A stretch of 64,000 nucleotides of DNA from assembly GCF_003334385.1 (NCBI RefSeq), contig NZ_QOWN01000022.1; one strand, 5' to 3'. Below the pieces are notes generated by a model, which saw only the letters and a list, made by a program, of their open reading frames with translations, searched no databases and was not told the origin of the DNA. Source of the DNA: Escherichia coli (GTDB lineage Bacteria > Pseudomonadota > Gammaproteobacteria > Enterobacterales > Enterobacteriaceae). The position numbers were made by a program, and so were the translations under genes. The stretch's first letter is position 1; each line of letters starts with the position of its first letter. Positions 44,130-57,437 of the stretch are shown one piece after another.

Positions 44130-45365
44130 CTACGATAACCGCGCATTCAACATGGCTATCTGTTCGTCGTTCATGTCATCAATCCACATACCGTAAATTT
44201 CATACACCATCTGCGCAGTTTCATGCCCCATTTGGCTGGCTATAAATGCCGGGTTCGCTCCTGCCGTCAACAGCCAGCAGGCAAAAGTATGCCGCGTATG
44301 GTACGGATTACGGCGGCGAATACCAGCACGTTTTACTGCTGCATTCCACCTTGCCCCCAAACTGCTTACCGAGTAATAAGGTTTTTGTTTTCCGTTACAC
44401 ACCCTGGGCATGAAAACAAAATGCAGTTTTTGCTTTTCGGTTCTGCCGTACTCCCGATGATAAAAGGTGATTTCGCTTTTGCGATGATGCCCGGTCAGTT
44501 TGTATTGCTCCTTCAGTGCTTCAAGAGCAGGCTGCAGTAGTGTTACTGTTCGGATCCCGGCATTTGTTTTTGGGGGACCGAACATATCAAGTATCGTCAG
44601 GTTTCTTCTGACATTCACTATTCCCTTTTCGAGATCCACATCCTCCCACGCCAGAGCTGCCAGTTCCCCGTGACGAAGTCCTGAGTAAACGGCAAATTTC
44701 CACAAGTTCTGGCTCTGTCCTTTTTCACTTTCCATTAATGCATTGAATTCTGTTTTAGATAACGGATCAGGCTTTATTCTGTTTCGCTGTAATTTTTTTA
44801 CTCCTTCAAATGGTTTGGTTGATATAAATCCCGACTGATACGCAAAACGCAACAGCGAACAGAGCAGGGCGATATAGTTATCAACTGTGCGCACGGTTCT
44901 TCCTTTTTTGTTGGATCTTGGATTATCCAGGTAAAGCGTTTCTCCATGCAGCAGTTCATTCCGGTAGTTTAAGATATCGCTATAACGAATATGTGATATC
45001 GGGGTACTTTCACAAATTATTATTCTGAGTGTTTTTAATTGTGATTTCGTTTTCTTCATTGTGTTTGTTGTTAACTCTGTCTCTTTAATTTTTGTCCAGA
45101 TATCACAAAGCTCTCCGAACGTTTTTATGACTCTCGTTGTCACCATTTTTGCCCCAGTGCTGGACTGGGGAAAACGTCTTAAATACTCAAATTCACCGGA
45201 GTTTATTTCATGAACTATCAGCGCTCTTAAATTTCCGGCCTTTTTAATATTACTGTTTGTAATCTCCCAGCCTTTTAATGTTTCCCGACATCGTTTTCCT
45301 CGAAACATGAACCAGATGCGAATGTATCTACCTCTAATCTCGACACCTGTTGGTAATTTAGACAT
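44130..45365 (-). CDS. intR: prophage tyrosine integrase
   Basis: 411-aa ORF with C-terminal recombinase motifs (HTRHTFA ... Y). Confidence 0.9.
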   Translation of the reverse strand: MSKLPTGVEIRGRYIRIWFMFRGKRCRETLKGWEITNSNIKKAGNLRALIVHEINSGEFEYLRRFPQSSTGAKMVTTRVIKTFGELCDIWTKIKETELTTNTMKKTKSQLKTLRIIICESTPISHIRYSDILNYRNELLHGETLYLDNPRSNKKGRTVRTVDNYIALLCSLLRFAYQSGFISTKPFEGVKKLQRNRIKPDPLSKTEFNALMESEKGQSQNLWKFAVYSGLRHGELAALAWEDVDLEKGIVNVRRNLTILDMFGPPKTNAGIRTVTLLQPALEALKEQYKLTGHHRKSEITFYHREYGRTEKQKLHFVFMPRVCNGKQKPYYSVSSLGARWNAAVKRAGIRRRNPYHTRHTFACWLLTAGANPAFIASQMGHETAQMVYEIYGMWIDDMNDEQIAMLNARLS

Positions 45366-45366
45366 A

Positions 45367-45582
45367 TCATGAGTCTTTGATAAACTGATTTATCTTTGGA
45401 TAGTTGTACCAGATAATCCCTCGTTTGCTGTCTGGCTTACCTAAAGGAGATACTCGTTTGAAGTGGAAGCCCTCCACCCAACAGTTCTGGCGGTATGCTT
45501 CAATTTGTCTGGCCCCCAGACCAGTGCGAAGCATCAGGCCGTATTCAACCATCCACTCTTCATTAAAGATTACTTGTGCCAT
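45367..45582 (-). CDS. xisR: prophage excisionase-like protein
   Basis: small ORF directly upstream of int (ORF track 45367..45606). Confidence 0.65.
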
Positions 45583-45660
45583 CGCATCACCTCTGGCAGG
45601 CGCCAATGTTAGACTGAAATTGACGCCCGATGTTGATTATTAATAATCAGCTATGAAGTT

Positions 45661-45870
45661 TTAATTTGAATACAATGCAATTCTCGAGGACTGAAGTTTC
45701 TCGCAATTAAAATTTATCAGTTTTACTTTCTGCTCTCTGGAAACGCCTGCTTCTTTTTTACCTGAGAGCATTTTTTCGCATTCTGATTTCGTTAGTTTAG
45801 ATTTTGAATATCTTGTCCAGTTAGTAGGAGTGCCACCTTCCTTTTCAATAGTGGCGGTAATTTTATACAT
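45661..45870 (-). CDS. ydaC: Rac prophage small protein
   Basis: 69-aa reading from internal Met MYKITATIEKEGG of ORF 45661..45942. Confidence 0.6.
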   Translation of the reverse strand: MYKITATIEKEGGTPTNWTRYSKSKLTKSECEKMLSGKKEAGVSREQKVKLINFNCEKLQSSRIALYSN

Positions 45871-46057
45871 GAACACCTCCATTATTATTTCCAGTGGTTC
45901 GTTTATTCCATCTTTCGAGTGCTTCTTTTTCACTTCCACCATAACCGGTTCGGGATTCGCATCCGTTACACTTCGCTCGGTAATATCCTGAAATGGCTTT
46001 CACCGTTACTGATGGACAACCACAAAATGGACATGGTTTAACATTGTCATATCTCAT
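45863..46057 (-). CDS. ralR: restriction alleviation protein Lar/RalR
   Basis: ORF track 45863..46069; Cys-rich MRYDNVKPCPFCGC...CNGC. Confidence 0.7.
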   Translation of the reverse strand: MRYDNVKPCPFCGCPSVTVKAISGYYRAKCNGCESRTGYGGSEKEALERWNKRTTGNNNGGVHV

Positions 46058-46112
46058 AATTTTTCTCATAAAAATATTTCAAGTTGGCGGTGCATTACAC
46101 CGCCAGGCTGAA

Positions 46113-46922
46113 TTATTCCTCTGAATTATCGATTACACTGTATTCCCCGGTTAATACAGAGGAATCTGCAGGATCGATTGTCAGTGGTTCCTTTTCATCC
46201 ATTGATACTGCACGCTGGATCTCAATTGATACGGGCAGATATTTGAACAGGCGACGAATAGCCGTTTTCTTTGCCATTTCTTCCCAGTGAGTTACCCACG
46301 GCCCGTTATTACCAGCTTTACTCAGGCTGCGCACCAGCTCAATCTGTTTGCGCGTCATAACTTCAAACTGAGTACCTCCGTCTTTCAGTCTTGCGACAGC
46401 ATAGACGTGGGTAACCGGGGCATCTTCGTTTTCTCCCGGGCGGTGTATTAACTTTTCATCAAGGCCAAATTCGAAGCTAAACTCGTCACCTTCACGGACA
46501 ACACGGGCTGACAGGCTGGCGATTTGACCAGAACGGCGAGCCAGATCAATCATGCCGCGATAGCCAATGATTAGCTGAACGTTCTTTTTACCGCTCTTTT
46601 CGTTTTTATTACCAAAAGGCAGTAAATATGCATGACCGAGGGCGCTACCTGGCTCAAGTCCGAGCTGTGAACACTGTACGATCGCACTGACAAAACTCAT
46701 AGTGTCACAGTTTCCTAACGCCGGAACTTTACGAATTTCTGTGGTGGCGATACGGATCATACGTTCAGCCGTCATATGGCGTGGAAGAGCTGCTGCCAGT
46801 TGCTCTTTCATTGATGGCTGGTTAATAAAACTAATCACGTCGCTATTTTTAACTGCTGCTGGTGCACGGTTTCCCTGAGTTTTTTGCAGATCGGCTTTTG
46901 CGATTGGTGGTTGCTTAGTCAT
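46113..46922 (-). CDS. recT: RecT single-strand annealing recombinase
   Basis: ORF track 46113..46979; recognised RecT start [13 protein letters not shown]. Confidence 0.92.
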
Positions 46923-49515
46923 TTGCATATTCCTTAGCCCAGCGGGGCAGTGATAATGTCTTAATAGCTGGCCATTCATCGGTATTCAGGCAGTCAGACA
47001 GGGTTCGCAGATTGCGGTGATATTCCTGTTGACCTGCCAGTTTTGCTTCTTCGCCCATCATGAAAATTTCAACCGGATAACGTCCGCATTCAATAGTTGT
47101 GCTGGCAACCAGAAAAACGAAAGTTGGCTGCACTCCAAACTGTGCTTCATAACCGTCACTGTAGAATGCATCCTGAACGTGATAGCGGTAGTCGTAATAA
47201 GCGGTTTTGAATCGTTGAATATCCGCCGTAGTTTTCACGTCCATGATCCAGTGAAATTCAGGGATAATTTTGTCCGGACGGCACCGACACAAAATTCCTG
47301 TTTCAGGATCTTCCCAGTAAATTGATGATTCAGCGTGTCCGGCGCTTTCAACAAGCCATTGCCCCAGCGGCAAAGCCATAACGCTTTGATACATGAGTTC
47401 AATTTTCCGGCCTTCTTCCGCAGTGATAACCGTTTTTCCTGTGCTTGCGCATTCCATCAGAAACGCTTTCTCTTCTTCTTTTCCGGCGTTTGTACGGCGG
47501 TTAAATTCAGGTGCTACGATAAAGCGGTTACTGAATTCTTCCGGTTCAAGTACCCGGCAGTGGAAAGCAGTTCCTAAATCGAGCGTTTTTGTCTTTGTGG
47601 TGTTCACGGGGGCATTTTTACGCCACAAATATAGTGCCGGAGTATCAGCAATGTCATCGAGCTGAGACTTACTGATACCGGGACCCGCGTGGTAATTCTC
47701 ATTCGAAATTCCGTAATAAATACCTGGCTCTATGTCTTCTACGATTACGGGATCTGCGACTTCGCCAGTTTCATCACTGCAATCGCGATGCGGATCGCTG
47801 CCAGCATTCTCATTGTGCGGATGTTCAGCGCCTTCCATTTCCTCCGGATCATTTTCCTTAGCTTCAACCTGACTCTCTTCATCGAATGTTTCCTGGTATG
47901 TTGCGTCGCCCATCACCGCACCACAGTCAGGGCCGTTATCCCCGCCAGTCTGGCCGCAGGCATTGCAGGCTATTTCCGGTTCCTGTTGCACTACTGGCTC
48001 AGGTTGATTCATATCTGGGCTGGTTTTTTCCGTTTCTGGCTGGTTCTGGTACACACAATCGCGAGTCTGGATCCCCTTTACCCATTTCGGATCGTTCGGG
48101 TCGCTAATTCCGTCAACAAATTCACCACGTGATGCAGCAAGCAATTTATCGGCATCGACAGGATTTTTTGATGGAATGTTTTTCCGGGCTTCATGGAGTT
48201 CTGCCCGCAGTTCCTGATATTTCGCATCAACAGAATTTACCTGTGACTGAGCATCCAGCGGCTGCGTGTCCTGATGATGTTCAGTTGCGTCCGGTTCCAT
48301 TGTTTCAGCCTCTCCCTGTTCAACTGCCGTTGTTCCAGATGGTTGCGGTTTTTCTTCATCATCCTGTTTTCCTTCTTCTGTTACTCGCTGCGGCATCGGG
48401 GCAGAGGAGCGACCGCAGGCAATATCCACGATTTCCGGATCAGGGTTGGCATGATCGGTTTCAGTCAGTACTTTGTTCAGATATTCAGTGACGTGCGCGG
48501 GGATGACCTCGATCCCAATTGGTGCTTCTTTTACGGACGCAACCACGATGGCGCGCGAATAATCCAGCCCGCCAGGCATGGTGATGAATTTGTCGCGGAA
48601 AACAGAAAAGGGCGGTTTATTTTCAGCGATAATTTCCTCAATGCGTTTAGCGTGTGCCGGATGAAGGTTATAGATGTCCAGATCCATTGAACGGGCCAGT
48701 ACGCCAGTGGCTACGTCGCGCGCCAGTGACGTCAGATCGTGTACGAAACCTTCGCCGCGATCGGTGAGGTTTCCGCCGCCAGCATTAGCACCGGAAGCCG
48801 TGCGAGTGATGTGTGAAACACGATTACCCTTCATCCACTCTTTTGTCAGCAGTCCTCGATCGGTGTAGTCAGCGTTCAGGTATGCTTCGAAAAAAGCAGT
48901 TATCAGTCCCAGGTTTGAATTACCAGGATTAGGGAAAACTTTGTCAGTGTCACGAACCAGTTTGTGGAGTTCGCGAATTTCCAGCGGGTCGAGCAGGCTG
49001 GTTTTGTGGGAAACAGCCAGGGCAGTAACAGCCGGTAGTTCTTCAGCCCGAGCAATGTGTAATGCCTGGAGTCCGTCGCGTGAAACGTGCGTTACCGGTT
49101 TTTCGCTGCCGTGTTGAGCAAGCCAACGAATGGGCAGTTCCTGGCCAGAAATTGGGAGTAGCATATTCTCCTCAATCTCAGTCATGTCTTCGCCGTTGAC
49201 GTTGGTATTGCCTTGATAGTGAGCGTTGTCTGGTGCTGCTCCCGGTTTTAGTTCCCATGTCATGGAGTCTTTGCTGAGTTGATAGCGTTCACTCCAGGTA
49301 AAATCGATCTCACCTTCAGCGGGCAGGTCATTAACGACAGGAAAATTCGTGGCAACAGCTTTAAAATAGCTGCTCAGTTTTTTACCTGACTTAACGATCA
49401 GGTAGTCCAGAGTGGCACAGGTCGATTCAAAATCGTTGCTTGCCCACAGGACGACGTCAGGTTCACCGGATGATTTTTTCGCTTTCCGTAACAGGAAGAG
49501 TGGTTTTGTGCTCAT
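46915..49515 (-). CDS. recE: exonuclease VIII (RecE)
   Basis: 866-aa ORF overlapping recT start; acidic low-complexity middle region; C-terminal nuclease. Confidence 0.92.
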
Positions 49516-49616
49516 TGTTTTTTAACCTCAACTCAGATTAAAATTCGTTTTGTTCAGTGAATGATCTTGCCGGATACACACTGTTCATAGCCTGCGCCAT
49601 ACGCAGGCTATTTCTT

Positions 49617-49892
49617 TCAGATTTCACCTTTTAATTTCATTGCAATTAGAGTTGCCAGAAATTCGGCTTTTTTTTCTGCGGGCAGATTCTTTCCGATATG
49701 CACCAGGCACATTTTTTTGACACCTTCATCAAGTGTTTTTACGTTGCCTGATGGACCATCGATATCAACCACAGTGAATGGGGTTTCTTTATTTTCTGTT
49801 TTAATTACGTAGCCAATGCGCTTTCCTTCCAGATTCACCTCGTGAACAATGTCATCGGTAGTTACAACAGTGGCTTCATAATTGGTAATCAT
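49617..49892 (-). CDS. racC: Rac prophage protein RacC
   Basis: ORF track 49617..49940; start MITNYEATVVTTDD. Confidence 0.8.
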   Translation of the reverse strand: MITNYEATVVTTDDIVHEVNLEGKRIGYVIKTENKETPFTVVDIDGPSGNVKTLDEGVKKMCLVHIGKNLPAEKKAEFLATLIAMKLKGEI

Positions 49893-49966
49893 GTTTTTCT
49901 CCTTAATTAAGGTTGAGCGAATACCTGCCATTTCTGGCATAAATTCAGTTTCGAATAGTCAATTAA

Positions 49967-50137
49967 TTAAAGTTCATGTGCCATCTGGTCTTTTTCGGCA
50001 CAAGCTTCACTGCAATATTTTCTCGGTTCGTCTTTTGATAAAATCCCGTGCATGAAGTGAAGCATTCTTTCAATAGCTTTGCTTTTTTCAACGTCTTTTT
50101 TGCAAAGGTGGTAAGCACATTTTATTTTCTTAGTCAT
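49967..50137 (-). CDS. ydaE: small Cys-rich zinc-binding protein (56 aa)
   Basis: minus-strand [59 protein letters not shown], below ORF-track cutoff. Confidence 0.7.
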   Translation of the reverse strand: MTKKIKCAYHLCKKDVEKSKAIERMLHFMHGILSKDEPRKYCSEACAEKDQMAHEL

Positions 50138-50358
50138 CACCATGACTCCGCCTTTACAGGTAAACCATCACGACCGAGGAAGACTTTAATCATGCGGTCA
50201 GTAATGCATGTTTTTGTGGTCAGGTTACGAATATATAGTTTTCGCTTTTTAATATTGTTTGCCGAGGCAATATATGTCCGGCCTTCATGAAGAACATAAT
50301 CGCCAGGAGTCACACACTGACGTGGTATTTCATCAGTTCCGAAGTGATGTGCAATCAT
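50137..50358 (-). CDS. kilR: FtsZ-targeting killing protein KilR
   Basis: ORF track 50137..50370; start [14 protein letters not shown]. Confidence 0.85.
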
Positions 50359-50799
50359 AATTATCTCCATTTTTACAAATGAACTTTGTTGATGCGGTGC
50401 CTGGTGCCTCCAGGTGACTGCAACCAGTTAACAATTACAGTCGGCTTTCCCACCCAAACCAATAAGGACTAACATGACTTTTAACTGTGCCACGTGCGCT
50501 TAGCCGCATTCACCGCATCACAAAATTCACTTTAAAAAGGGCGGACATCAGCCGAACTTCAAGAAAAAAACTGATGCCGCCAGGACTACACACAGCAATG
50601 TCGTTATTTACAACCGGAGGCGCACTCCCACCATTTAAATTTAACAGACAAGACCGACTCTTTATGGATATCGGAAATGCGCCTTCGTGTTGTGCCCGGT
50701 TTTATTTCACCACCTCCGGGCTTCGGTGGTCTCGGCTATACCCCTACAGCGAGAGCTTGTGTTAACATTTCAATACCCTTACAGTTGAGAGTTATTGAT

Positions 50800-51288
50800 A
50801 TGTTGGATGTATTTACTCCATTGTTGAAACTTTTTGCTAACGAGCCACTCGAAAGACTTATGTATACGATTATCATTTTTGGTCTCACTCTCTGGCTGAT
50901 ACCGAAAGAGTTTACTGTCGCATTCAATGCTTATACTGAAATACCTTGGCTCTTTCAGATTATCGTTTTTGCCTTTTCTTTCGTGGTCGCCATTTCCTTC
51001 TCAAGATTGCGAGCACATATTCAAAAGCATTATTCATTACTACCAGAGCAACGAGTATTGCTTCGTTTATCTGAGAAAGAAATCGCTGTATTTAAAGATT
51101 TCCTTAAAACAGGAAATCTTATTATCACTTCTCCTTGCCGTAACCCGGTTATGAAAAAATTAGAACGGAAGGGCATCATTCAACATCAGAGTGATAGCGC
51201 AAACTGTTCTTATTATCTCGTCACCGAAAAATACTCCCATTTTATGAAGTTATTCTGGAACAGCAGGAGTAGACGTTTTAATCGTTAG
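50800..51288 (+). CDS. sieB: superinfection exclusion protein SieB
   Basis: ORF track 50677..51288; start at internal Met MLDVFTPLLK; TM segments. Confidence 0.8.
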   Translation: MLDVFTPLLKLFANEPLERLMYTIIIFGLTLWLIPKEFTVAFNAYTEIPWLFQIIVFAFSFVVAISFSRLRAHIQKHYSLLPEQRVLLRLSEKEIAVFKDFLKTGNLIITSPCRNPVMKKLERKGIIQHQSDSANCSYYLVTEKYSHFMKLFWNSRSRRFNR

Positions 51289-51440
51289 CTTACTGTGTGC
51301 TTCTCCAACCATCGGCGCGCACCAGTTTCGGTTTTAAATATTTTGCTTTTTGTATACGTCATCGCGGTGAACGTTCCATCCTGGTTGGGGAACACGCCGC
51401 ACACCAGGGATTCGTTATTGCGGAGGTCGATTTTTTGCAT
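51285..51440 (-). CDS. ydaF: Rac prophage small protein (51 aa)
   Basis: minus-strand ORF MQKIDLRNNESLVCGVFPNQDGTFTAMTYTKSKIFKTETGARRWLEKHTVS. Confidence 0.65.
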   Translation of the reverse strand: MQKIDLRNNESLVCGVFPNQDGTFTAMTYTKSKIFKTETGARRWLEKHTVS

Positions 51441-51450
51441 TTTTCGCACC

Positions 51451-51585
51451 TCACATTTTGTTGTTGCGGATAGAGGCTTCTGCCTGCCAGAGATCCCAGT
51501 CGTTGCTGCGTAAAGCCTGCACAGCCTGGTTGTAAGTGATGCCGCAACAATCCATCAAATACTGAACTACTTCGTAATGCACCAT
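51451..51585 (-). CDS. ydaG: Rac prophage small protein (44 aa)
   Basis: minus-strand ORF MVHYEVVQYLMDCCGITYNQAVQALRSNDWDLWQAEASIRNNKM. Confidence 0.65.
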   Translation of the reverse strand: MVHYEVVQYLMDCCGITYNQAVQALRSNDWDLWQAEASIRNNKM

Positions 51586-51764
51586 CTTATCTCTCCCCTT
51601 AACGCCGGGTGGCGGAACTAACTGCTGCACTGCAAAATTTGAATCCCGCCGTCATGTTCATACGCCTCGGGCTGGCTACTTAACCCCTTACCACTGCCTG
51701 GTAACTCGAAGTATTGCCCGGCGTTCTGTGGGGCGGGGTGGGTGGTATGCTGGAACTATAGGTA

Positions 51765-51820
51765 ATGCCTAATTGATTGTCAATAGGTTATGCCTAATGT
51801 TTTGAGCGTAACCTAATAGG
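51765..51820. promoter_or_regulatory. operator-like repeat set on the 3' side of racR (OL-like)
   Basis: TAGG/CCTA-arm dyads; 24-nt block (51777-51800) is the inverted copy, 23/24 identical, of 52421-52444. Confidence 0.5.
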
Positions 51821-51893
51821 TGATGGCGACAGCAGAAAGTGATGGGGGGGTTAAATAACGGAATCCAGGAGTTTTCCGTCAGACCATATAAGT

Positions 51894-52370
51894 TTAAGTT
51901 CCAGTTTTTGTGATGTTCTGGCTTTTCCGTTCAGATTCTAGAGCTTTCAGATACTTACCCACTTTCATTTCCATCGCTGCTATGTAGGCGCGAACATCGT
52001 GGTCAACCCAATCTGGTTCTGTAGCATTTCCAGATAACAGGAAAGCTACAATCGCTCTTATTTCATCAGAGGCTGCTTGATAAAGGTTGTTTATATCTAA
52101 AAGTTCACTTTTTGTATCTGAATTGGTGGGGGTTGGTATGGGGTATTCGTTAAGCCCCCAATGCTCTGGACCAACAACATCAGAAAAGAAACGCCATAAT
52201 TCTGGAAGTTTATCTTTACTTATAGAGCCTTTCTTAATCCAGTCATAAATTGATGGTGGTTGGACTTTGAAGTGGCGTGCGACCTCCGCCTTTGATTTGA
52301 CGGATCCCGATGCGATTTTTTTGTTAATGGCCTGCTCTATCGCTCGGCCTAAGTCTTTACCACTAAGCAT
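51894..52370 (-). CDS. racR: prophage repressor RacR
   Basis: 158-aa ORF with N-terminal HTH, divergent from ydaS. Confidence 0.88.
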   Translation of the reverse strand: MLSGKDLGRAIEQAINKKIASGSVKSKAEVARHFKVQPPSIYDWIKKGSISKDKLPELWRFFSDVVGPEHWGLNEYPIPTPTNSDTKSELLDINNLYQAASDEIRAIVAFLLSGNATEPDWVDHDVRAYIAAMEMKVGKYLKALESERKSQNITKTGT

Positions 52371-52390
52371 TGCTTAATATTCTCCTATGC

Positions 52391-52465
52391 GCATTACATT
52401 AGGCAATCCCTACCCTTATCGCATTAGGCATAGCCTATTGACAATTGCGTTAGGCGTAGCCTAAT
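52391..52465. promoter_or_regulatory. racR/ydaS divergent promoter-operator region (OR-like)
   Basis: dyads TAGGC-N3-GCCTA (52424-52436) and TTAGGC-N2-AGCCTAA (52449-52463), half-site cattacattaggca, embedded TTGACA. Confidence 0.6.
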
Positions 52466-52790: not shown

Positions 52791-52812
52791 AACATCAAGA
52801 GGCAAATGATTC

Positions 52813-53235
52813 ATGAAAATCAAGCATGAGCACATCGAATCAGTGTTGTTTGCCCTGGCAGCCGAAAAAGGGCAGGCATGGGTAGCCAATGCAATTACTG
52901 AAGAATATCTGCGCCAGGGGGGCGGCGAATTGCCCCTGGTTCCAGGCAAGGACTGGAACAATCAGCAGAATATCTATCACCGTTGGTTGAAAGGTGAAAC
53001 GAAAACGCAAAGAGAAAAAATTCAGAAGCTGATCCCAGCAATTCTGGCAATCCTTCCGCGCGAGCTGCGTCACCGATTCTGCATCTTCGATACCCTGGAA
53101 CGCCGTGCATTACTGGCGGCGCAGGAAGCGTTAAGTACGGCAATTGATGCGCATGATGATGCAGTCCAAGCCGTTTACCGGAAAGCGCATTTCAGCGGCG
53201 GCGGGTCTTCCGACGATTCTGTCATTGTTCATTAA
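52813..53235 (+). CDS. ydaT: Rac prophage protein YdaT
   Basis: 140-aa ORF; synteny. Confidence 0.85.
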   Translation: MKIKHEHIESVLFALAAEKGQAWVANAITEEYLRQGGGELPLVPGKDWNNQQNIYHRWLKGETKTQREKIQKLIPAILAILPRELRHRFCIFDTLERRALLAAQEALSTAIDAHDDAVQAVYRKAHFSGGGSSDDSVIVH

Positions 53236-56282: not shown

Positions 56283-57437
56283 ATGGATTATTTATCAGAA
56301 GTGTTAAAAATCATTGAAGGTGCAACAAAGGCAAATGCTTCGATGGCTAGTAATTATGCTGGGTTGCTGGCAGATAAGCTCGAACAAAAAGGGGAGGTCA
56401 AGCAAGCCAGAATGATAAGAGAAAGGTTGCTTAGAGCTCCCCAGGCGTTGGCAGGAGCTCAAAGGGCTGGAGGTGGGATATCTCTGGGCTCATTACCGGT
56501 AGATATTGATAGTCGACTCAACACTGTTGATGTCAGTTATCCTAAATTAGACAGTTCAGAGATTTTTCTGCCTGCAGCAATCAGTACCCGTGTTGAAGAG
56601 TTTATCACTAATGTTCAACGTTATGATGAGTTTGTTAAAGCTGATGCAGCATTGCCGAGTCGTATGCTCGTGTATGGAAAGCCAGGAACAGGTAAGACTA
56701 TGTTATCTAAGTACATCGCTACCCGCTTAGATTTTCCACTTCTTACAGTGCGTTGCGATACTTTGATTAGTAGTTTATTGGGACAAACCAGCAAAAATCT
56801 TAGACAGGTTTTCGATTATGTAATGCAGAGGCCATCAGTGCTTTTTTTAGACGAATTTGATGCTTTAGCTGGAGCAAGAGGTAATGAGAGAGATATAGGT
56901 GAGCTTCAGCGAGTTGTCATTTCACTATTGCAGAATATGGATGCGGCATCAGAGGATACGGTAATTATTGCCTCAACTAACCATGAGCAACTTCTGGATC
57001 CTGCAATCTGGAGGCGATTTAGCTTCAGAATTCCAATGCCTCTGCCTGACATACATCAGAGAGAGTTAATTTGGAAAAATCGTTTAAAGAATATGATATG
57101 TAGCGATCTAGATTTAAGTGATTTATCAAGAAAATCGGAAGGATTATCCGGAGCAATAATTGAACAGGTGAGCTTGGATGCACGTAGGGATGCAGTTATT
57201 GAAGGTGCAAGTGTGATAAATCACCACAAATTGTATAGGCGTTTGTATCTTGCTCAATCGCTTATGGAAGGTGTAAATTTAAGCACTTACGAAGATGAAA
57301 TTCGTTGGTTACGTTCTAAAGATAAAAAATTATTTTCTATCAGAGTTCTTGCTAATTTGTACAAACTTACATCAAGAGTAATTTCAAACATTCTGAAGGA
57401 GTCAGGAGCATATGAGCAGAAGGGGTACACAGTTTAG
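56283..57437 (+). CDS. AAA+ ATPase (classic AAA clade), first gene of cargo cassette
   Basis: 384-aa ORF; Walker A GKPGTGKT (56676-56699), Walker B VLFLDEFD (about 56841-56861), sensor-1 IASTN, Arg finger region PAIWRRF; AT-rich. Confidence 0.85.
   Translation: MDYLSEVLKIIEGATKANASMASNYAGLLADKLEQKGEVKQARMIRERLLRAPQALAGAQRAGGGISLGSLPVDIDSRLNTVDVSYPKLDSSEIFLPAAISTRVEEFITNVQRYDEFVKADAALPSRMLVYGKPGTGKTMLSKYIATRLDFPLLTVRCDTLISSLLGQTSKNLRQVFDYVMQRPSVLFLDEFDALAGARGNERDIGELQRVVISLLQNMDAASEDTVIIASTNHEQLLDPAIWRRFSFRIPMPLPDIHQRELIWKNRLKNMICSDLDLSDLSRKSEGLSGAIIEQVSLDARRDAVIEGASVINHHKLYRRLYLAQSLMEGVNLSTYEDEIRWLRSKDKKLFSIRVLANLYKLTSRVISNILKESGAYEQKGYTV

Follow-up and report, generated by a model that had tools for sequence, protein, structure and literature searches.

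A candidate left operator and promoter beside racR in a Rac-type prophage of Escherichia coli

The Rac prophage is among the most used in molecular genetics, being known for RecET recombineering, the KilR division block and the paradigm of silencing by Rho, and RacR is its essential repressor. Here we consider a Rac-type lambdoid prophage on a 64,000-nucleotide (nt) stretch of Escherichia coli DNA (assembly GCF_003334385.1, contig NZ_QOWN01000022.1; hereafter the window), and in particular the sequence between racR and ydaG, where a 24-nt block recurs in inverted orientation relative to a copy on the far side of racR. We consider it likely that this left block is part of the left operator (OL) and left promoter (PL) of the prophage, at which RacR would bind and repress leftward transcription. 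The repeats, their layout, a promoter match, its conservation and the joint replacement of both operator sets in heteroimmune phages are read directly from the sequence. As lambdoid phages are expected to have an OL/PL, the result is predictable and not conceptually surprising; it is, however, apparently undescribed for Rac, and an operator-controlled left promoter bears on what drives kilR, recET and xis-int, on whether RacR represses these genes directly, and on where Rho acts.

Mirrored operator-promoter cassettes around racR

The repeated block, CATTAGGCATAGCCTATTGACAAT, is present exactly at 52422-52445 on the plus strand and, as its reverse complement with one mismatch, at 51776-51799 on the minus strand, the copies lying 646 bp apart from start to start with racR between them. 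An earlier note on this DNA had described such an inverted recurrence across racR at about 650 bp, and the repeat is indeed there, with each coordinate one base away from that given in the note. When up to three mismatches are allowed, the 64 kb contain no match besides the two copies, and 100 dinucleotide-preserving shuffles yielded none at all. The similarity reaches 35 nt at 83%, and the left and right regions, each read in its own transcription sense, align in register over ~75 nt in the window and likewise in K-12 and an O157:H7 relative, with the invariant columns on the operator half-sites and the -35 hexamer. In effect the block consists of one RacR dyad (TAGGC-n3-GCCTA) and a TTGACA -35 hexamer, and a further six positions outside these elements also match between the copies.

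The dyad motif TAGGYNNNGCCTA, at up to one mismatch, has five starts around racR, two to its left (51759, 51784) and three to its right (52400, 52425, 52451), and a lone extra site at 63817; this amounts to 12 strand-hits against 3.9 expected, a number that no shuffle of 100 attained. Neighbouring dyads are separated by 25 bp between OL1 and OL2 and by 25 and 26 bp on the right, the left-hand distance being within the about 23-25 bp, centre to centre, that would suit pairwise cooperative binding at a lambdoid left operator. Both block copies were said in the note to sit within clusters of TAGGC/GCCTA dyads, which holds, with two dyads on the left and three on the right. The extra site (63817-63829, CAGGCATTGCCTA) was considered as a further member of the system and rejected, as it is isolated, carries one mismatch, lies far from the immunity region and is within chance expectation. 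The elements of the left side are as follows.

51755..51760, minus: PL -10 hexamer TATAGT (promoter scan), its first two bases being also the final two of OL1
51759..51771, unstranded: OL1 dyad, TAGGCATTACCTA in the PL sense, within the PL spacer and overlapping the -10; matrix score 14.2
51776..51799, minus: left copy of the 24-nt block, made up of OL2, the -35 and flanks; one mismatch
51778..51783, minus: PL -35 hexamer TTGACA (promoter scan), inside the 24-nt block and kept in relatives
51784..51796, unstranded: OL2 dyad, TAGGCATAACCTA in the PL sense, abutting the -35; matrix score 16.9; private substitution at 51788
51810..51817, unstranded: OL3 remnant, a single half-site ATTAGGTT (PL sense), 25 bp upstream of OL2 and aligned with the third right-hand dyad
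51586..51748, minus: untranslated PL leader (predicted), running from the inferred start to ydaG's start codon, with a C-rich 5' end
51858..51879, minus: hairpin ACGGAA / TTCCGT after the racR stop codon, read from the sequence

The order on the left, dyad, TTGACA, dyad, TATAGT, is the design of the right side mirrored and directed away from racR, toward ydaG through intR. The TTGACA-17-TATAGT arrangement (51783 to 51755, minus strand) agrees with the sigma-70 consensus at 11 of 12 positions, a match that defines a predicted promoter, and it is the sole strong minus-strand promoter-like site in 49500-51900, that is, between racC and racR. The transcription start, placed near 51748, is derived from the position of the -10. 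Upstream of OL2 the motif CATCACCTATTAGGT of the OL3 remnant is kept in nearly all of 26 distinct variants of the left region (described below), with the other half of the dyad absent; a third full left dyad at 51809-51821 was considered and discarded, as it does not fit the dyad pattern and the alignment with the right operators (OR) leaves one half-site (ATTAGG). The hairpin in the above list lies 15 nt after the racR stop codon, between racR and OL/PL, and shows a compensatory A-T to G-C stem change in the O157 relative; because it has no T-run it is not a canonical terminator, and its role may be that of a weak terminator or of an element that stabilises RNA.

The right side, where RacR action has been studied directly, provides the standard of comparison.

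52364..52376, unstranded: published RacR operator O3, TAAGCATTGCTTA, over the racR start codon (PMC9638921); matrix score 12.2
52400..52412, unstranded: dyad TAGGCAATCCCTA, the farthest from the ydaS promoter
52422..52445, plus: right copy of the 24-nt block, exact match
52425..52437, unstranded: dyad TAGGCATAGCCTA, abutting the -35 of the ydaS promoter (PMC9638921)
52438..52467, plus: ydaS promoter, equivalent of the right promoter (PR), TTGACA-18-TAATAT (promoter scan)
52451..52463, unstranded: dyad TAGGCGTAGCCTA, published O1, in the spacer and -10 of the ydaS promoter (PMC9638921)

The ydaS promoter has been mapped experimentally in K-12 (PMC9638921, PMC11879457), and RacR binding to the racR-ydaS region has been demonstrated by electrophoretic mobility shift assay (EMSA), footprinting and chromatin immunoprecipitation with quantitative PCR (ChIP-qPCR) (PMC5700373, PMC9638921), the region being protected by RacR in DNase I footprints (PMC9638921). 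Footprints and a cross-species comparison of the same region gave the operator consensus (T/A)TAGGC-n3-GCCTA(T/A) (PMC9638921), which the left sites fit. The note had proposed a motif scan of the rest of the prophage, and this was performed over the 64 kb with a position weight matrix trained exclusively on the three racR-ydaS intergenic dyads: the two left dyads, at 51782-51798 (16.9) and 51757-51773 (14.2), are the best two sites outside the training set, and both outscore the published O3 (12.2).

With regard to the repressor itself, residues 18-46 of RacR share 41% identity over 29 residues with residues 9-37 of YdaS, in the helix-turn-helix, and RacR gives a weak match to the Pfam YdaS_toxin family; Pfam, PHROG and PDB searches with RacR returned no informative family or structure. 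RacR and the Cro-like YdaS may have related DNA-reading heads, and the likeness of their helix-turn-helix segments fits a CI/Cro-like pair with common operators.

The sole mismatch between the block copies falls at 51788, with T in the window against C elsewhere, and alters the final base of an OL2 half-site, TAGGC becoming TAGGT on the plus strand; the OL2 dyad of other genomes is TAGGCATAGCCTA. The T allele was found in none of 79 IMG/VR loci and in none of 580 complete E. coli genomes carrying the region, no one of which is identical to the window over 75 nt. The closely related strain SCU-104 also has C at this position; it differs from the window by 12 substitutions and one single-base indel over 19.5 kb, so that the a priori chance of a substitution in one of the 20 OL core positions was low (about 1%). 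OL1 and the third right-hand dyad already depart from the consensus at the corresponding position, such that the effect of the substitution may be small, and possibly it is a mild operator-down allele.

Conservation of the left cassette and its exchange between phages

The left cassette is kept in 79 of 80 IMG/VR loci that encode RacR. Among the 26 distinct variants, mean variability on the left side is 0.012 in the half-site cores versus 0.071 elsewhere, and on the right side 0.005 versus 0.103, the changes being located in the 3-nt spacers and between sites; for the right side the contrast between variable and invariant positions is significant (p = 1.6e-6). More distant relatives were surveyed by scanning one genome per species with an alignment of the RacR family. 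A cassette of the form dyad-TTGACA-N7-dyad-(TA)ATAT, with dyads 24-25 bp apart and directed away from the repressor gene, lies 3' of the RacR-family repressor gene or operon in Mixta, Morganella, Proteus, Erwinia, Nitrosomonas, Achromobacter, Sphaerotilus and Rhodoferax, which is to say in 8 of 18 non-E. coli loci where shuffled sequences would lead one to expect 0.02. In several of these loci, open reading frames (ORFs) on the PL strand come after the cassette, and a -10-like element occupies the PL -10 position in all RacR-family relatives and heteroimmune phages.

Across this range the N-terminal ~75 residues of RacR are strongly conserved and are elsewhere joined to an S24 peptidase domain (LexA/CI type) or to different C-terminal regions, in proteins of 139-362 amino acids (aa) in total (P0103, P0105, P0114 and P0117; loci L090-L103). 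The TAGGC-n3-GCCTA layout upstream of the repressor gene is retained even in Betaproteobacteria. The DNA-binding domain and its operators thus move as a module in which the C-terminal domain is swapped, and domain and operator-promoter cassette travel together across Gamma- and Betaproteobacteria. Relatives of racR also appear on contigs filed under metagenome bins of Candidatus Nanosynbacter, Lachnospiraceae and Alistipes (L084, L085, L092); those of L084 and L085 match E. coli racR at 100% and 92% identity and have E. coli-type flanks, and L092 holds a remoter homologue with 63% identity across the N-terminal 87 residues. All three are probably misbinned proteobacterial DNA.

Further evidence is provided by prophages of other immunity. 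In strain 2013C-3513 a prophage has ydaG-ydaF and ydaT flanks as here, with another repressor between them and GTAC-rich dyads on both sides of that repressor, and its homology to the window ends just beside the -10. The leader (~160 nt) is also common to phages Tritos, Evi, 640R1 and 606R7 and to Actinobacillus pPE4, each of which has its own TTGAC-type -35, -10 and repeats directly upstream. In all six heteroimmune sequences homology restarts within a few bases of the predicted PL start, which places the mosaic junction at that start, near 51748. Operators co-replaced on both sides are the pattern that would be expected of an immunity cassette bounded by OL/PL. The parallel that the note drew with lambda, in which the repressor gene is flanked by OL and OR, is supported: the left dyads fit the RacR consensus, overlap a leftward promoter match, are kept in other genera and are swapped as a unit.

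The predicted leftward transcript and competing explanations

The region shows 99.9% identity to strain SCU-104 and 98.7% identity to K-12 (over 1.5 kb), and gene names were moved by offset from the RefSeq annotation of SCU-104 and complemented by the ORF list.

51894-52370, minus: racR, the repressor, 158 aa
52494-52790, plus: ydaS
52813-53235, plus: ydaT
44131-51585, minus: early-left operon 3' of PL (SCU-104 RefSeq annotation transferred by offset, and ORFs)
51451-51585, minus: ydaG, 44 aa
51285-51440, minus: ydaF, 51 aa
50137-50358, minus: kilR
49967-50137, minus: ydaE
49617-49892, minus: racC
46915-49515, minus: recE
46113-46922, minus: recT
beyond recT within 44131-51585, minus: ralR, rcbA/ydaC, xisR and intR
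50800-51288, opposite strand to the early-left operon: sieB

Read from PL, the minus-strand order ydaG, ydaF, kilR, ydaE, racC, recE, recT, ralR, rcbA, xisR, intR comprises kil, recombination and integration/excision functions. Elsewhere in the prophage, the anti-phage genes iteA and iteS lie at about 56283-59676, 3' of the replication genes (by transfer from the SCU-104 annotation); a frameshift in intR and internal stops in recE and ydaV, all present in SCU-104, do not occur in the window; and the published YdaT box, ATGATTCATGAAAATCAA, is unchanged at 52806-52823, over the ydaT start codon (PMC11879457).

What we infer from these features is that RacR occupies OL, that PL is active and where it starts, and it is reasonable to postulate the following mechanism. 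RacR dimers would bind OL2 (51784-51796) and OL1 (51759-51771), whose dyad centres are 25 bp apart, and the third upstream half-site may help this binding. With OL2 abutting the -35, and OL1 filling the spacer and overlapping the -10, of a near-consensus sigma-70 promoter (TTGACA-17-TATAGT), bound RacR would cover the PL hexamers and is proposed to exclude RNA polymerase, as at the mirror-image cassette over the ydaS promoter. Once RacR was lost, PL would fire leftward from about 51748 and transcribe ydaG-ydaF and then, termination allowing, kilR-ydaE-racC-recE-recT-ralR-ydaC-xis-int.

Published expression data are consistent with this mechanism. Where the C protein of Csp231I lowered racR expression, RNA sequencing (RNA-seq) recorded increases of about 40-fold for ydaF, ydaG, ydaE and racC and of more than 70-fold for kilR, ydaC and ralA, racR being the one Rac gene that fell (PMC6765115); recE and recT are not individually named as induced, and racC, ralA and ydaC, which lie on either side of them, are (PMC6765115). 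A decrease in racR mRNA with a simultaneous rise of the left genes is explained directly by a RacR-repressed promoter 3' of racR and fits poorly with simple read-through from the racR promoter. The note had suggested that RacR controls both a rightward ydaS-ydaT toxin operon and a leftward transcript; the leftward control is supported by the operator matches, the PL match and the RNA-seq, but the label of toxin operon is contested, Cro-like and CII-like regulators being the preferred description (PMC5917428), a view with which the PHROG matches of YdaS and YdaT agree. The Rac literature searched makes no mention of sites 3' of racR and describes no Rac OL/PL, no RacR set from ChIP, systematic evolution of ligands by exponential enrichment (SELEX) or DNA affinity purification (DAP), and no sbcA mapping, older subscription papers being outside the search; none of the 12 RefSeq records listed, out of 580 matched genomes, is annotated at the left site.

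The leader through which this transcript would pass (51586-51748) is 85-89% conserved in thousands of E. coli genomes and 76% in the Actinobacillus phage. It carries no annotation and is also found in several phages with other immunity regions, among them in Qin-type ydfA-dicF-dicB operons, and its first ~30 nt are very C-rich and G-poor, resembling a Rho loading site. An Rfam scan of the leader at a permissive threshold found no family. An RNA element was considered and rejected, as the single-sequence fold gave z = -1.7 and the covariation term of RNAalifold over seven homologues was positive (unfavourable), with few compensatory pairs; a small leader ORF (MNMTAGFKFC...) was likewise rejected, its frame being broken by 3- and 1-base indels in the O157 homologue. 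As to an N gene or nut site, ydaG and ydaF, the first genes after PL, each match a PHROG family of unknown function, and the leader has neither an Rfam match nor convincing covariation in the seven-sequence alignment, no dedicated nut/put model having been applied.

Several points weigh against a RacR-controlled PL. The published EMSA, footprint and ChIP-qPCR data are confined to the racR-ydaS region, the left sites being outside every fragment used (PMC5700373, PMC9638921). Neither left dyad is perfect (ACCTA half-sites), and only half of the third site is present. The enrichment of invariant positions in the OL cores is a trend only (Fisher p = 0.07), and 10 of the 18 distant loci have no downstream dyad pair within the 1.1-2 kb of sequence examined. 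Between sieB and kilR, on the minus strand, there are sub-threshold Rfam matches to DicF (50539-50594; 39.1 bits, gathering score 48) and STnc100 (50351-50537; 35.5 bits, gathering score 47), and the DicF-like part forms a GC-rich hairpin at 50541-50585 and then runs into CTTTTT, an intrinsic-terminator type of structure between ydaF and kilR, which may limit how far the predicted PL transcript extends. YdaS, YdaT, excision or copy number could account indirectly for part of the derepression in the RNA-seq data. Last, a Rho-dependent terminator inside racR has been reported to protect cells from kil expression, with kilR expression put down to read-through from the racR promoter (PMC4150792).

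This last report is the foundation of one alternative, namely that ydaG-kilR are expressed leftward from the racR promoter when Rho termination fails, or indirectly via YdaS/YdaT, excision or replication, and that the left dyads are not the control point. Silencing of kilR by Rho and NusG, as cited in PMC12482147, is in keeping with it, and YdaT, a CII-like activator (PMC11879457), would offer an indirect route. We nevertheless regard it as improbable: racR mRNA goes down as the genes 3' of it go up 40- to 70-fold (PMC6765115), a near-consensus promoter match and two operator dyads lie exactly between racR and ydaG, and a hairpin parts racR from the left cassette. Read-through and PL may also coexist, since Rho could also target leaky transcription from PL, within the C-rich untranslated leader.

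We attach similarly little probability to the left dyads being mainly auxiliary operators, with hexamers of minor importance, from which a ~650-bp DNA loop to the right operators would tighten ydaS repression and racR autoregulation. Two like clusters do flank the repressor gene at a distance of 616-650 bp from each other, octamers and looping are known for lambda CI and for PaaR2 of CP-933P (PMC8630535), and a distance of 616-661 bp between clusters is maintained in Enterobacterales relatives. These same distances, however, reveal no helical phasing common to the relatives; the -10 lies outside the duplicated 24-nt block and yet is kept in every relative; and at this place each heteroimmune phage has a -35/-10 of its own, ahead of the common leader and early-left genes. 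Looping and promoter control are compatible, which makes looping an addition to the latter rather than its replacement: RacR at OL and OR may loop the 0.65-kb segment carrying racR, a geometry that clusters about 0.62-0.65 kb apart would allow. Least probable, to the point that we give it hardly any credence, is the view of the left block as a relic without function, left by an old duplication of the operator-promoter region on the right. The six matching block positions outside the half-sites and -35 hint at common descent or gene conversion, but half-sites and hexamers are conserved where spacers and flanks vary, and the cassette persists across bacterial orders.

It is also possible, though on balance we doubt that every part will hold, that these elements combine, with OL/PL as the main source of kilR and recET transcripts, the leader as a Rho/NusG loading site that silences leaky PL transcription, maybe an OL-OR loop, and the T at 51788 as a mild operator-down change. 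If this were true, PL and a Rho-loading leader would link sbcA-type recET activation, the kilR lethality of Rho inhibition and the OxyS/NusG-dependent induction of KilR.

Relation to known immunity regions

The published RacR operators O1-O3 (PMC5700373, PMC9638921) share with the left sites their motif, their spacing and the relation of dyads to -35 and -10; O1-O3 were tested by EMSA, DNase I footprinting and ChIP-qPCR on fragments that exclude the left sites. Compared with OL/PL and OR/PR of lambda, Rac likewise has tandem dyad operators of one family on both sides of the repressor gene, each set overlapping a strong promoter (predicted for the Rac left side) that fires away from that gene, with neighbouring sites about 24-25 bp apart, a left operon of kil, recombination, xis and int functions, and an immunity cassette exchanged as a unit between heteroimmune phages. 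The differences are nonetheless considerable. No sequence relationship between lambda CI and RacR is detectable except for a weak helix-turn-helix signal (PMC5700373), and RacR lacks the S24 self-cleavage domain of CI. The Rac dyad is 13 bp (5-3-5) where that of lambda is 17 bp; OL comprises two full sites and one half-site, unlike in lambda; and OL and OR are about 0.65 kb apart rather than 2.4 kb, a shorter distance owed to the lack of rexAB genes. After PL, the Rfam, PHROG and covariation analyses above brought neither an N gene nor a nut site to light, and ydaG and ydaF come first behind the 160-nt conserved leader.

A closer sibling is CP-933P of E. coli O157:H7, whose PL933P/OL1-OL3 belong to a lambdoid immunity region that, like Rac, has ydaS- and ydaT-type genes (PMC8630535). 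Its second promoter, beyond the repressor operon, has a -35 and a -10 that match its own PR's exactly, and operators like those at PR and PRM (PMC8630535), and PL933P is repressed about 100-fold by PaaR2 and YdaS in experiments (PMC8630535). CP-933P differs from Rac in that its repressor is of another family and acts on 18-bp palindromes with the half-site consensus GTTTAGTAA, in the toxin-antitoxin pair within its repressor operon, and in that its left promoter has been tested experimentally, whereas that of Rac is known from sequence. In the Qin prophage, dicBp, a second sibling counterpart backed by experiment, is, like the predicted Rac PL, a PL-like promoter beside the repressor gene (PMC10448788). 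The repressor DicA and its operators differ from those of Rac, and the Qin of K-12 keeps only the 3' part of the common leader, but the Rac PL leader is homologous to the Qin-type ydfA-dicF-dicB leader of several phages. The three operators of dicBp are DicA operators like those between dicA and dicC, and the operon that this promoter heads, as PL would in Rac, includes a cell-division inhibitor (PMC10448788).

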